This document shows positions 7,585 through 53,605 of a stretch of DNA of 64,000 nt, in pieces (positions within the stretch are counted from its first letter, which is position 1; every line of letters starts with the position of its first letter). The position numbers and the translations under genes are program-made. Below the pieces are notes generated by a model. The model did not search any database. It was not told the DNA's origin and was given only the letters and a program-made list of their open reading frames with translations. Origin of the DNA: Eledone cirrhosa (lineage: Eukaryota); the NCBI GenBank assembly GCA_964016885.1, contig OZ024740.1, positions 129,890,001 through 129,954,000 of the forward strand, in the 5' to 3' direction.

Positions 7585-7627
7585 ACGATGTACTAGTTTC
7601 AAGCTTATTAACTATCGTCAGCATCGT
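7585..7627 (-). ncRNA. Minimal type-I hammerhead ribozyme motif
   Basis: Reverse complement: ACGATG CTGACGA tagttaataagctt GAAAC TA GTA CATCGT. Confidence 0.7.
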
Positions 7628-7798
7628 ATACCTTCCTGCCAGATGGTTGAACGTCTGAAAATATATACTTTCCTTATGCATATTAACGGCTGTGTCAATG
7701 TTAAACAAAAAGGTGGCGTGTTTGCCTAAACACTGTACGGCGTAAACAAAAAGGAAAATATATACTTTCAGACGTTCAACCAGCTGGCAGGAAGGTAT

Positions 7799-7841
7799 AC
7801 GATGCCGACGATAGCTAATAAGCTTGAAACTAGTACATCGT
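7799..7841 (+). ncRNA. Hammerhead motif with mutated core (CCGACGA)
   Basis: Identical to 8254-8296 except core U4 to C. Confidence 0.6.
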
Positions 7842-8253
7842 TCCTGTGTCAGTGTTGAACAATAGGTGACGTGGTTGCCTAAACACTGTACGGCGTAACT
7901 CGGGCTGTTTATTTGTTTACAAGCAAACAAACCGAGCATTATAATAAATGTCCGGTAAACCGATACGTGCATATATATATATATATATGTGTGCATGTAA
8001 GTATATATATATACATACTACTGTACGTCTGTATACATATATGTATGTACGTATACATACATACATACTTACATTTAAGTAAATGCCGTAGTAAGAGTGA
8101 GAAATGAAATTTCGTTTCATTCTATTCCATATATCGTTTTCGGTGCCCCCCGGCCGACTGAACTCACTCAATATGCATATCAGGCTGCTCAGCCGTTAAT
8201 ATGATTAGGAATGTATATACTTTCAAACCTTCAATCATCTGGCATGAAGGTAT

Positions 8254-8296
8254 ACGATGCTGACGATAGCTAATAAGCTTGAAACTAGTACATCGT
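8254..8296 (+). ncRNA. Minimal type-I hammerhead ribozyme, intact core
   Basis: Stem I ACGATG/CATCGT; core CTGACGA; stem II AGCT-aata-AGCT; GAAAC; palindromic stem III ACTAGT; cleavage triplet GTA. Confidence 0.78.
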
Positions 8297-8494
8297 TCCT
8301 GTGTCAGTGTTGAACAATATGTGGTTGCCTAAACACTGTACGGCGTAATTCGGGATGATTGTTTGTTTACAAACAAACAAACCGAGCATTATAATAATTG
8401 TTCGGTAAACCGATACGTGCATATATATATATGTGTGCATGTATGTATATATATACATACTACTGTACGTCTGTATACATGTATGTAAGTACGT

Positions 8495-8570
8495 ATATAT
8501 ATATATATATATATATATATATATATATATATATATATATATATATATATATATATATATATATATATAT
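8495..8570. repeat. (TA)n microsatellite
   Basis: Pure TA run. Similar runs at ~9870-9950, 20520-20640, 29645-29750, 48965-49185, 50055-50135, 51925-52168, 53640-53785, 54210-54285 and 63661-63710. Confidence 0.98.
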
Positions 8571-8790
8571 AATTAAGTTAAAAGTGTACATCTACATATG
8601 TATACGGAAATATTAGTATGCATATAAATACACACATGTATACATATGTACATGTACTGAGTTTTTCACTGGACACTTTACTGTGAGTGTCCAGCTAGTC
8701 TGTATGTAAACAAACAGACAAACCGGGTTTTAGAGTCATACGGGTTTTCAAGGAAACACATTTCCTCTATTCTCCAGAGAGCCAGACAGG

Positions 8791-49186: not shown

Positions 49187-50030
49187 AAAGTTAGTCCTTC
49201 ATCAGTGATCTTCCAACCATCATTGGTATTTCATCGCTTTAAAGACCATATACCTCCGGTTGGTGCGAGCAACGGCTACACGGCTACAAATAGTCGTTGG
49301 GACACGTAAATAAAGGGGTCACGAGTGTAAATAAGCAAAGATGGTGAAGCAACTCGTCTACGATTTCACAGCACGTTTATTCTCATATTTACACATATTT
49401 TTTTCCCCGCCGTAACCCGTCTATTTCGTTCTTCCTGCTTTCTCTTTCTCTGTATCTTTACCCTCTCTAGCAGTCACTCTCTCTGTTAGCCTCTTCCTCG
49501 CCCTTCACTCACTCATTCTCTGTTACTACCTCTCCTCCTCCTTCTTCCCGTTTGACCTGTGCGTAATTATTTTCTTTTCTTTCGCACCCTTGGTCTGGCA
49601 GGTCGCTTTTTTTCTCTCTCTCGTCTACGATTTCACAGAACTTAGGTTCACCGAATTCACACACTAGATCCCTTCTTCCTCCCGTTAGACCTGTACGGAA
49701 TTCCTTCCTTGCTCACATTCCAACCAGGTTTGATGGTCTTTATTCTCTCTCGTTCACGATTTCACCGAATTTAAATTCATAGAAATTTGGGACTTGACTC
49801 CTTCTTCCTCATGTTTCGTTGCTTCAGCATCTTTGTTTATTTACACTCGTGTCCCCTTTATTTACGTGTCCCAACGACTTTTTTTAGCCGTTGCTCTCAC
49901 CAACCGGAGGTATATGGTCTTTAAAGCGATGAAATACCAATGATGGTTGGAAGATCACTGATGAAGGACTAACTTTATTCATATGTAACCCATTAGCAAC
50001 CCCGCGGCACGTTTATTCTCATATTTAAAT
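49187..50030. mobile_element. Foldback/pLTR-like element between (TA)n tracts with internal tandem repeats
   Basis: 49187-49353 is the reverse complement of ~49818-49977 (CTGATGA at 49958). Internal 'ctcgtctacgatttcac' occurs about three times. Direct repeat 'gcacgtttattctcatattt' at 49371 and 50007. Confidence 0.72.
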
Positions 50031-50177
50031 ATATATATATATATTTGTATATATGTATATATATATATATATATATATATATATATATATATATATATAT
50101 ATATATATATATATATATATATATATATATATATATACATATGTGTGTATATATATATGTATATGTATATATATATA

Positions 50178-50790
50178 TGGTGACTGCCAACTCGTTTTCG
50201 AGTACGGCCACTACTTTATATCCATGTAGAACCCTTACCGATGCGCTGATTGAGTGTGACTTTTTAGTCCAGCCAGCGACTTGAAAACTCTGGTACAAAC
50301 ACTACACTTGTGACAATTACTGACACATAGTGCTGGGCCCATGGTAATATTTGATGACAAGTGCAGAGAAATCTCCAGATATAAAGCAATGCCTGTGCTG
50401 TGAAGCTTTTATGGTGAGCAAAGGCACTGCACAAATCCAGTCCCACTCTCTTAACTAAAGATGATATTTACCTAAAAGAAGAACAAGTCAACATCATTGG
50501 ATACCATCAGAGTTGCAGGTGTTATATCAGAGTTTTCCTTCTCCTGGAATGGTGCCTTTGACAAAAGCTAAGGGGTCATCTCATCCGGTGATTTTGGATG
50601 GCCATTGATTCTTAAGAGATCCTTTGCCCTTTGACAGGTTTTATTTTTAGTCCTGCAGGATGTCCAAAGTCACCCTCCTCACCAAGAAACCTTGGTGGGG
50701 TTGCCAGTTCAGTCACCAAAGACCCGACCATGATTCAGGTTGTACTGGGATACATGTTACCAGTAGCACGAACTGGTGACCTGAGCGACG
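50178..50790 (-). mobile_element. Isolated RTE-type 5' UTR/leader between (TA)n tracts
   Basis: Minus-strand 'ggcaccattccaggagaaggaaaactctgat' resembles the leader motif I recall from RTE LINEs; GC-richer than its flanks. Confidence 0.42.
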
Positions 50791-52166
50791 TATATATATA
50801 TATATATATATAAATATATATATATATATATATAAATGTATATATATATATATATATATACACACACACATATATATATATATATACTATTATACACATA
50901 CACATATACATACATATACATAGATATACACATATACATACATACATACATACATATACATATATTTAAGAATATATCTATATAGAATGTATCGTAATGT
51001 TCTATACACACGATCCGTCGGGTATCTCATAAACGATATTCTTTCGTATGTAATTATACATTTAGTCTATGTAATTGCAAGCGGGAATATATAAGAATAT
51101 TGAAGCTTCATTAAATGGTAGAAATTATCTTTTGTTTTAATTATATAGATGTCACATAATTTCCAAGAAATGCACCAAATAAAAAAGTAAATATGCAATG
51201 CAAGGAGAAATAAATCGATTTTAATTATGAATTACTAACGTTCAAAACTAAGATGAAGTGGGACTAATAACTATATCCAAAGATGTCTGATTTAATATTC
51301 TAACATCAAAGCTACTCGAATTTTAATTTCATGTCATTTGTTGCGAAAACATTTCTCACATTCTGACATTATACATACATAAATACACACACATACACAC
51401 GTACAGAGAGAGAAAGAGAGAGATATACACATACCCCACCCACACACACACGCACAGTTACAGAGAGAGACACACACATACACACACAGAAATACACACC
51501 TACACACCCACACCCAGACACACACATACACACACACACACATATATATATAAAAAAAAAAATATATATATATATATGTGTGTGTGTATATATATATACT
51601 TGAATTTGGGTGTATGCATTTATAGCATTAACGATGGTTGTCCGAATGTGTACGGAATACTAACACAGATAATCATTATATTCAATACAATATTAAATCT
51701 GTACACATATATTTCGTTTACAAATAAAATTTACGTAACTAGAACTGATCATGCATCTACAATCACCGGATACGGAATGAAGGAAACATGTCTTGCAATG
51801 GAGAAATTATTTCTGTTTATAATACACACAACCCTAGTTACACACAAATGCACTCATGCACATACAGCCGCACATACACACGTATTCGCATACGCCCACA
51901 AACTTACGTGCACACAGAATGTGTATATATATATATATATAAATATATATATTTATATATATATATATATATATATATATATATATATATATATATATTA
52001 TATATATATATATATATATATATATACTATATATATATATATATATATATATATATATATATATATATATATACTATATATATATATATATATATATATA
52101 TATATATATATATATATATATATATATATATATATATATATATATATATATATATATATATATATA

Positions 52167-52910
52167 TATGAAAGACGTAAAATAAGAAAATTATAAAAAG
52201 TAACTTACTTACTAAAATTTCACTCCAACTAATTACTTCCTGAAAGGGAACAAACATGCTTTCCGAATGGAGACATGGAGAATACCATTCGTCATCAGGA
52301 AGTCAATTCTCACCTAAGTTCCTAGGCGATGCGTGGACACAGGGAACTTATACAAATATAATTCTATGGATGGAAAAAAGCAAGCGCGGACTAAATTCCA
52401 GGACATTGAAAATATCACTGCCACTTGCTCGGTGGCAAATTCAAAAGAATCAATCACGTGACATCGAGGTTAATCAGGGAGGAGTGGGGTACACATATAA
52501 GTATCTCCAAATTATTTTGTTAAGCAAAAATTTGCCAAAACTACTACTATAGTTAATAGTAATAGTCCGACTACTGTCTTATTAACAACCCACTCCTCAC
52601 TGATTAACACCGATGTCACGTGATTGATTCTTTTGAATTTGCCACCGACCAAGTAGGCAGTGATTTTTTCAATGTCCTGGAATTTAGTCCTCGATTGCTT
52701 TTTTCCATCCACTGAATTATTTTTGTATAAGTTCCCTGTGTCCACGCATCGCCTAGGAACTTAACTGAGAATTGACTTCCTGATGACGAAAGGTATTCTT
52801 CATGTCCATTCGGAAACCATGTTTATTCCCTTTCAGAAACTAATTAGTTGGAGTGAAATTTTAGTAAGTAAGTTAATTTTTATAATGTTCTTATTTTACG
52901 TCTTTCATAT
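52167..52910. mobile_element. Foldback element, ~320-bp diverged arms with ~100-bp spacer and a hammerhead-like core in each arm
   Basis: 52167-52491 vs 52588-52910; 'cttc CTGATGA cgaa..ttcg GAAA' at 52776-52816 and its mirror at ~52259-52302. Confidence 0.78.
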
Positions 52911-53181
52911 TATTGTTCTGCATCTCCTTGCATTGAACGACAAAGTTACTAAGACAAAACCTATATATTTGTTAGTATAGGCATGCATCTGTATATATAT
53001 GTTGGTAGCTATACTAATTCTTTATATATATATATATTTATGTGTGCATATCTGGGCATAGGCATGCCTGTATGCATGTACATTTATATATTTTCTGTCT
53101 AAGTATATACGTATATTTACTCACCCAGAAACACGCAGCCACATATACATATGTATGTATGTATGTATGTATGTATGTATA

Positions 53182-53605
53182 TCTGAAATGCATAGACAGT
53201 TGTCCCCCTTGCTTCTGCTGGACACCACCAGAGGGCGTTATCCCAGTGGTGTTTGCATAGCTACGGCTGCATAAAACCGCATTTCGTTAGCAAATCGAAA
53301 TAGTTATACATCTTATATGAAGCTATGCTTGAAGCAAAATCTTATTCCTTTTCTCTTATAAGCTGAGCCAACTTATGCAGCTTCATATGCAAATGAGATT
53401 AATCACCTGATTTACACAGACGAGATATTCCCGGCTGTTTTCAAGACCAGCAGTTGCAATCGGTGGGAGGGACCGTCCTACCGAAGGCCAGTCAAGCCTG
53501 AAATGCATAGACAGATGTCCCCCTGCGTTTGCTAGACAACACCAGAGGGCCTTACCCCACCAGAGTTTGCATAGCTACGGCTACCTAACACCGTATTTCT
53601 TTTGT
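53182..53605 (+). mobile_element. Partial tandem (period ~316 bp) with octamer and degenerate hammerhead
   Basis: 'ctgaaatgcatagacag' at 53182 and 53498; ATGCAAAT at 53387; 'ccgtc CTACCGA aggc cagtcaa gcct GAAA tgc ATA gacag' at 53473-53514. Confidence 0.65.

Follow-up and report, generated by a model that had tools for sequence, protein, structure and literature searches.

Hammerhead repeats and an upstream octamer at the locus

The stretch of DNA that we analysed, referred to below as the window, comprises 64,000 nt from Eledone cirrhosa (NCBI GenBank assembly GCA_964016885.1, contig OZ024740.1, positions 129,890,001 to 129,954,000 of the forward strand). Its GC content is 36%, and the genome assembly amounts to 3.0 Gb. 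The window holds copies of four high-copy, non-coding repeat families (A, B, C, and D), in which a hammerhead ribozyme core lies downstream of an octamer of the kind known from small nuclear RNA (snRNA) promoters (Table 1).

An initial annotation, made from the letters of the window, had described octamer and core as a cassette with fixed spacing. All of the octamers and cores that it named are in place, in the same order on the same strand and 80-92 nt apart when measured from the last base of the octamer. From first base to first base, the distance is 87 nt (8173/8260) and 88 nt (33551/33463) in the two family A insertions, 99 nt in family B (9444/9543), 93 nt in family C (29339/29246), and 91 nt in family D (53387/53478), with a sixth pair in the inverted copy of family B (8927/8828, minus strand). 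The constant part of the spacing is a different one: a TATA-like box (YATATA) follows 41-43 nt after the start of the octamer in all four families, and likewise (43 nt) in a fifth family, G; this family was recovered from the genome by a search anchored on the octamer with TATA left unspecified, and its octamer is exact and in register in 22 of 29 copies. The distance from the TATA-like box to the core varies between 46 and 59 nt. A loose pattern found five octamer-core pairs in the window, compared with a mean of 0.09 and a maximum of two in 200 dinucleotide shuffles; as the pairs are copies of repeat families, this excess is no set of independent events.

Three of the window copies (B, C, and D) are damaged, and that of family D has lost both the integrity of its core and its TATA-like box. 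Relatives have an intact CUGACGA...GAAA core with an AUA triplet, and the octamer-core spacing in intact family D copies is 98-99 nt. The family B hammerhead in the window, with its CAAA, is likely inactive. Position 9564 in this core was G in all four sequencing runs, which are contigs of unrecorded kind, were used solely for this letter, and are uninformative on transcription starts or strand. In family C, a 33-bp unit is tripled (29319-29427); it includes the octamer together with GATCAGT, a U2-like word.

Table 1. Coordinates of the octamer-hammerhead repeats in the window
Feature	Position	Strand	Remarks
Family A insertion, older subfamily	7584..8493	mixed	Ends at (TA)n tract
Family A, inverted partial copy	7584-7692	-	Joined to direct copies 7751-8493 (+)
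Family A, octamer variant ATGCATAT	8173..8180	+	TATA-like box 8214-8219
Family A, type I hammerhead core	8260..8290	+	Up to predicted cleavage triplet GUA
Family A, sister cores near the 8260 core	7805 and 7621		7805 mutated (CCGA); 7621 on - strand
Family B insertion	8571..9873	mixed	Period ~470; (TA)n on flanks
Family B, copies	8571-9095 and 9096-9873	- and +	Inverted copy and direct tandem
Family B, octamer ATGCAAAT	9444..9451	+	TATA-like CATATA 9485-9490
Family B, mirrored octamer and TATA-like box	8927-8920 and 8886-8881	-	
Family B, hammerhead core	9543..9573	+	CAAA instead of GAAA; mirrored 8828-8798 (-)
Family C insertion	29060..29606		Main copy 29440-29060 (-); inverted partial copy 29443-29606 (+)
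Family C, three 33-bp repeats	29332..29405	-	Each with octamer or variant
Family C, exact octamer (last repeat)	29339-29332	-	43 nt before TATA-like box 29296-29291
Family C, hammerhead core	29213..29246	-	AAAA for GAAA here; family consensus intact
Family A, partial tandem, young subfamily	33076..33872	-	Period ~510
Family A, octamer ATGCAAAT	33544..33551	-	TATA-like box 33509-33504
Family A, intact type I hammerhead core	33433..33463	-	To cleavage triplet GUA
Family D, partial tandem	53183..53640	+	Period 315 (family: 323-328); ends at (TA)n
Family D, octamer ATGCAAAT	53387..53394	+	TATA-like box deleted in this copy
Family D, degenerate hammerhead core	53478..53509	+	Broken in this copy

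The pairing of octamer and hammerhead across the genome

The arrangement of octamer and core recurs genome-wide. Cores of the GAAAC type number 135,321, compared with 4,065 for the reversed pattern. An octamer 70-100 nt before the core was found 33,407 times, as against five times for the reversed pattern and 378 times with the octamer flipped, the latter mainly at inversion junctions; octamer, TATA-like box, and core occur together 27,700 times, with no instance of the reversed pattern. These counts measure copy number rather than independent events. Judged by reading, 26 of the first 100 cores listed belong to the octamer families A, B, C, and G, and the remainder to the tandem families E and F and to short-helix types. 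Where E, F, and short-helix hammerheads were examined, the octamer was not seen. Two further matches to octamer plus core (L106 and L108) were set aside as chance-like, as they lack the family anatomy. The 34 loci obtained in a metagenome scan for octamer, TATA-like box, and core include no convincing hammerhead fold, and the scan is for that reason uninformative on distribution.

The repeats have the anatomy of non-LTR retrozymes

Copies of family A elsewhere in the genome are 96-98% identical to the window copy and are frequently arrayed; identity is 91-93% for family C and 83-86% for the best copies of family D. The units are low in GC, contain no open reading frame (ORF), and are arranged as dimers up to long arrays, with unit lengths of 453-587 bp (A), 466-467 bp (B), 327-328 bp (D), and 310-311 bp (E). 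A tandem with two cores was not seen among 30 copies of family C, nor in family G. The consensus ribozymes are of type I with an intact core, and in predicted folds helix I is extended, reaching 20-30 nt. Folded as circles, the monomers have minimum free energies far below those of 30 shuffles (z = -12.6 for A, -10.8 for B, -10.1 for D, and -4.7 for E).

Ends were mapped in families B, C, D, and E; family A was left out because an internal (TA)n tract spoiled the mapping. The 3' ends cluster and in many cases join (TA)n (9/11 in B, 16/49 in C, 17/50 in D, and 5/10 in E), whilst the 5' ends scatter and rarely meet (TA)n (1/11, 0/52, 3/49, and 0/10, respectively), from which we conclude that the strand bearing octamer and ribozyme is the RNA strand. 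An inverted partner copy lies within 1.5 kb at 14/29 loci of family A, 20/29 of D, 17/29 of C, and 4/29 of G. The retrozyme-like nature that had been suggested for the elements agrees with this anatomy. By their sequence features, however, families A-D fit the retrozymes lacking long terminal repeats (non-LTR), a class already described (PMC7229834), rather than the new class that had been proposed. Expression as linear or circular unit-length RNA and self-cleavage are predicted for these repeats.

A conserved block in otherwise dissimilar families

Families A, B, C, D, and G have in common a 12-nt block, TATGCAAATNAG, with a mean pairwise identity of 93%; its flanks are 30% (upstream) and 40% (downstream) identical. 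With the motifs masked, similarity between the five families is weak and close to that of shuffles (A-B, p = 0.01; A-C, p = 0.01; C-D, p = 0.02; A-D, p = 0.035; other pairs not significant), whereas E and F are clear relatives. The five families thus do not collapse into one, although they probably go back to a distant common ancestor, and the octamer stands out between them as a conserved island, as had been surmised.

The octamer matches the host's own snRNA-type promoters

For comparison, snRNA-type genes were taken from the same genome as the window. We used seven type-3 promoters of RNA polymerase III (Pol III), belonging to three U6 genes, U6atac, RNase MRP, and two selenocysteine tRNA (tRNA-Sec) genes. 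The octamer, exact (ATGCAAAT) in five and with one base changed in two, is found at -76 to -79 in all seven, and TATA is at -30/-31. The proximal element of host type-3 Pol III genes is octamer-like, at -77 (loci L141, L142, L143, L213, L223, L335, and L336). By contrast, the octamer is absent from that position in all 20 non-redundant promoters of RNA polymerase II (Pol II; U1, U2, U4, U5, and U12). In the host's Pol II snRNA promoters the TATA-like box is loose, the YCAG core is found between -58 and -55, and AATTAA lies close to -90. A distal element near -260 is common to 16 of 28 host promoters, of both polymerase classes.

The motif was in place at four of 19 U6 loci (two of them from one array and counted once), displaced at one, and absent from 14. 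For U6atac it was present at the top-scoring of 10 loci only, and for tRNA-Sec the top two of eight loci were read. We judged the U6 and U6atac loci without the motif to be retro-copies, from their altered 5' ends. In one copy of a U6 array (L153), the octamer has been shifted to -270 by an inserted SINE-like (short interspersed nuclear element-like) repeat of ~190 bp. The single RNase P RNA gene found (L334; G000:C24:12936134-12936474) lacks the octamer; its core is like that of Pol II snRNA genes and is accompanied by a TATA-like box and two distal elements, which suggests that the gene is transcribed by Pol II.

Scored with a matrix built from the seven Pol III promoters, families A, B, C, D, and G reach 16.6-19.7 bits (p<=0.002), and E and F stay below 2 bits. 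This agrees with the earlier view of the octamer as a promoter element of the snRNA type. In family E, which lacks the octamer, the 3' arm of the ribozyme contains the distal element of the host (18.3 bits), at the host distance from the U1-like core of the next unit (p = 0.005, the floor for 200 shuffles), and family D has a weaker match to the distal element (p = 0.03).

Which polymerase would use the proposed promoter

Octamer and TATA are 46-48 nt apart in the host Pol III genes, as against 41-43 nt in the repeats. When the TATA-like box is scored at the host spacing of 45-49 nt it yields -8.3 to 1.4 bits, and at 42-43 nt it yields 4.9-8.0 bits (families A, D, and G). The sense strand of the units also carries T-runs (T8 in A, T8 in G, and two T5 runs in B; none above T4 in D and E), and runs such as those of A, G, and B are expected to stop Pol III. 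A YCAS word that follows the octamer by 16 nt and precedes the TATA-like box by 25-27 nt resembles the host Pol II core. Matches to the Pol II layout of the host, made up of the YCAG core with a TATA-like box 25-27 nt after it, the AATTAA element upstream, and the distal element, differ between families: p = 0.002 for the three-part layout in A, 0.02 in F, 0.005 for the four-part layout in E, 0.03 in D, and 0.73 for the three-part layout in B. A second match to the Pol II core and TATA-like box lies ~157 nt after the core in the family B consensus (near 9700; 10.2 and 8.2 bits, p = 0.035) and may be due to chance. In Drosophila, Pol II snRNA promoters have the shorter spacing. Insect snRNA promoters are conserved according to polymerase class, in their sequence as in their spacing (PMC1761439). 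Because the spacing in the repeats is shorter than that of U6 and their sense strand contains T5-T8 runs, we regard Pol II as the more probable of the two polymerases and Pol III as its chief competitor.

Proposed mechanism

We consider it probable, on the strength of the sequence features described above, that the repeats are tandem hammerheads of the non-LTR retrozyme kind in which the octamer and the TATA-like box form an internal promoter of the snRNA type, probably read by Pol II, with its start predicted 15-30 nt before the core. Transcription would start ~30 nt after the TATA-like box, 16-28 nt before the core and near the 5' edge of helix I, which in the window would be near 33479 (-), 9516 (+), and 29266 (-), and would continue through the next unit, with cleavage at each hammerhead. 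In tandem arrays the ribozyme would release unit-length RNAs, so that the role first assigned to it, the trimming of an RNA end, undersells it. The released RNA would hold the promoter of the next unit, and for this reason an snRNA promoter, which is otherwise external to its transcript, would survive retrotransposition. The unit RNA would then form a circle, and a Penelope-like reverse transcriptase (RT) and endonuclease would copy it into (TA)n.

A more speculative extension, which we regard as possible though doubtful, is that animal retrozymes in general carry in each unit the species-specific snRNA promoter of their host and keep it through tandem or circular permutation. Two lineages would then be present here, a hybrid one and one of the U1 type with its distal element in helix I.

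Several observations weigh against the proposal of an internal snRNA-type promoter. The exact octamer is found on about a quarter of the cores, and about three quarters lack an exact one. Families A-D were picked in the initial annotation, and G by our search, for having the octamer, and the five are not independent acquisitions, since their residual similarity points to common ancestry. The choice of the seven host promoters is partly circular, because they were picked as likely real genes among many copies without the motif. The TATA-like box is strong in A, D, and G, but poor in B (-0.9 bits) and C (1.3 bits) and degenerate in one subfamily of D. The match to the Pol II core plus TATA is weak and uneven (p 0.007-0.15), and the layout of the repeats, a Pol III-type octamer with Pol II-like spacing, is a hybrid seen in no host gene examined. 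Within families, conservation of the octamer is mild, placing it in the top 8% (D), 10% (C), and 17% (G) of windows after correction of the ranks for query bias.

Alternative explanations

The promoter might have the same role but be of the true U6 type (type 3) and be read by Pol III, with partial read-through of T-runs giving rise to multimers. In the host, the octamer marks Pol III genes alone (7/7 vs 0/20), five of 11 family B 3' ends fall at positions 332-334, at a T5 run, family A ends cluster at 364, immediately past the T8 run, and families D and E are free of runs above T4. We nevertheless think this unlikely: the TATA-like box scores poorly at the Pol III spacing of the host, family A, which is young and amplifying, has a T8 run ahead of the next ribozyme and B has two T5 runs there, and newt satellite 2 is cited as a Pol II system (PMC6765202, PMC2220036).

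A second alternative is that the 12-mer acts in the RNA, as part of a hairpin that serves the mobilising RT/endonuclease, or a protein binding to the circular RNA, as a recognition signal, and that its likeness to the U6 element is incidental. In the predicted folds the octamer and its 12-nt block are paired in all five families, in A, B, and D within a hairpin formed locally and in C and G with distant arms; the hairpin shows a paired change between B and D, and the monomers are under strong structural constraint. However, the strand of the octamer is invariant while its partner strand changes in both sequence and position, and neither the identity with a DNA promoter element of the host nor the accompanying TATA-like box would be expected of an RNA signal. 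Octamer-less families, E and F among them, have been amplified too, and end at (TA)n. We therefore regard a role in the RNA as quite improbable.

Least probable of all, and in our view very unlikely, is that the motif is a functionless relic of one ancestral element that captured it once from the flank of a U6-type gene, the RNAs being made by read-through: the residual similarity between families, the weak excess conservation within them, and the many hammerhead families without the motif would fit, but a block so well kept between diverged flanks requires long-term constraint, and family C has tripled it.

Relation to Penelope-like elements

The initial annotation had linked the repeats to the pseudo-LTRs (pLTRs) of Penelope-like elements and their minimal hammerheads. 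We rejected pLTR identity for families A-D, as their units are tandem and non-coding and helix I is extended rather than minimal. Nor was the octamer present in the short-helix hammerheads sampled, including one (L410) that lies upstream of an ORF for RT and a GIY-YIG endonuclease. Of 20 loci with a hammerhead but no octamer, examined out to 10 kb, L410 alone had such an ORF on the same strand, so that for most of them a pLTR status is at best putative. What does agree with the earlier proposal is the anatomy of insertion: 5' truncation, adjacent inversion, and a (TA)n target are all present in the repeats, as in elements mobilised by Penelope, and are suggestive of mobilisation by a Penelope-like enzyme. 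Of the 373 loci retrieved, irrespective of kind, only nine had pieces of Penelope-like RT as neighbours.

Decayed remnants of Penelope-like RT and of GIY-YIG are also present in the window at 21150-23470 (-), with the RT at 22262-23470; the RT was labelled from motifs, and its Pfam match is weak. Elsewhere in the genome, an open frame of 821 aa for a Penelope-like RT and endonuclease, with an inverted terminal repeat, is found at L412:6628-9090. This ORF had no Pfam match, and no hammerhead was found there by the core pattern.

Other features of the window

Hammerhead-like cores without an octamer are present in the window at 47999 and 30066. Both sit in foldbacks (47930-48064 and 29657-30347), the former being one of a very numerous family whose TATA box precedes the core by 36 nt. 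A larger foldback (52166-52910), also without an octamer, has CUGAUGA, a 7-bp hairpin, and GAAA in each arm and is possibly a hammerhead variant. Rfam gave 164 matches in the window, and the 150 of them that were listed included no hammerhead family; nearly all were sub-cut-off microRNA-like foldbacks. Broken LINE-type (long interspersed nuclear element-type) RT frames, with matches to RVT_1, zf-RVT, and endonuclease, lie at 4143-6228 (+) and 26100-28331 (-). A dispersed SINE-like family of ~190 bp, once present as a tandem pair, occupies 6928-7137, 12268-12437, 36346-36537, 41130-41530, and 46225-46429.

Comparison with known systems

The repeats give an exact candidate promoter, consisting of a 12-nt element and a predicted start site, in ~33,000 copies. 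The map of host snRNA promoters (octamer-like element at -77 for Pol III, the other layout for Pol II) should be useful for the design of U6 expression vectors in this animal group.

The host type-3 Pol III promoters have the same TATG(C/G)(A/T)AAT(T/G)AG block followed by a TATA box, but their spacing is longer than that of the repeats (46-48 vs 41-43 nt), and long T-runs are found within the repeat units. Among mobile elements, metazoan non-LTR retrozymes are likewise short, low-GC tandems with type I hammerheads, no ORF, and self-paired monomers, and they too coexist with Penelope-like elements (PMC7229834). In family A as in the axolotl HHR_Amex2, helix II has a U-U mismatch at its base, and the units here reach 450-590 bp, compared with 150-450 bp in the retrozymes described (PMC7229834). 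High abundance is reported for animal retrozyme RNAs, and the main text of that study names no promoter for them, describes no internal one, and does not use the word "octamer" (PMC7229834). In the literature covered, which included the main text of PMC7229834, we found no description of an octamer or of a host-matched snRNA promoter in invertebrate retrozymes.

Like the repeats, the pLTRs of Penelope-like elements occur as partial tandems truncated at the 5' end, have inverted copies beside them, and target (TA)n (PMC4209133; bioRxiv 10.1101/2021.04.23.441226). They differ in having minimal hammerheads (PMC4209133), whereas the repeats have an extended helix I and no RT/endonuclease ORF. In the hammerhead SINEs of Schistosoma (Sm-alpha), a promoter is followed by a hammerhead and the upstream unit drives the next, as we propose here; that promoter, however, is a Pol III promoter with a tRNA in the repeat (PMC6765202), and the one here is a candidate snRNA promoter of the upstream type. 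No tRNA was among the Rfam matches at the repeats, although no separate tRNA scan was made.

A precedent comes from the newt. Its satellite 2 is said to have a promoter with an octamer and a proximal sequence element just upstream of the ribozyme. The snRNA promoter of newt satellite II is responsible for its transcription by Pol II (PMC2220036, citing Coats, Zhang, and Epstein 1994), and, much as proposed for the repeats analysed here, a tandem unit (~330 bp in the newt) combines a type I hammerhead with an internal snRNA-type promoter. The linkage of octamer and hammerhead, which had been thought undescribed, is consequently not unprecedented, given the snRNA promoter of newt satellite 2. 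What is new here is that several families match the snRNA promoter grammar of their own host, and that they do so in two layouts. The E. cirrhosa repeats, which are known from sequence alone, differ from newt satellite 2 in that several unrelated-looking families are present in one AT-rich genome, that the octamer is the Pol III proximal element of the host and is followed by a TATA-like box at 41-43 nt, and that other families apparently use the Pol II snRNA layout of the host. Together with the newt precedent, the repeats suggest one general solution across distant animals.

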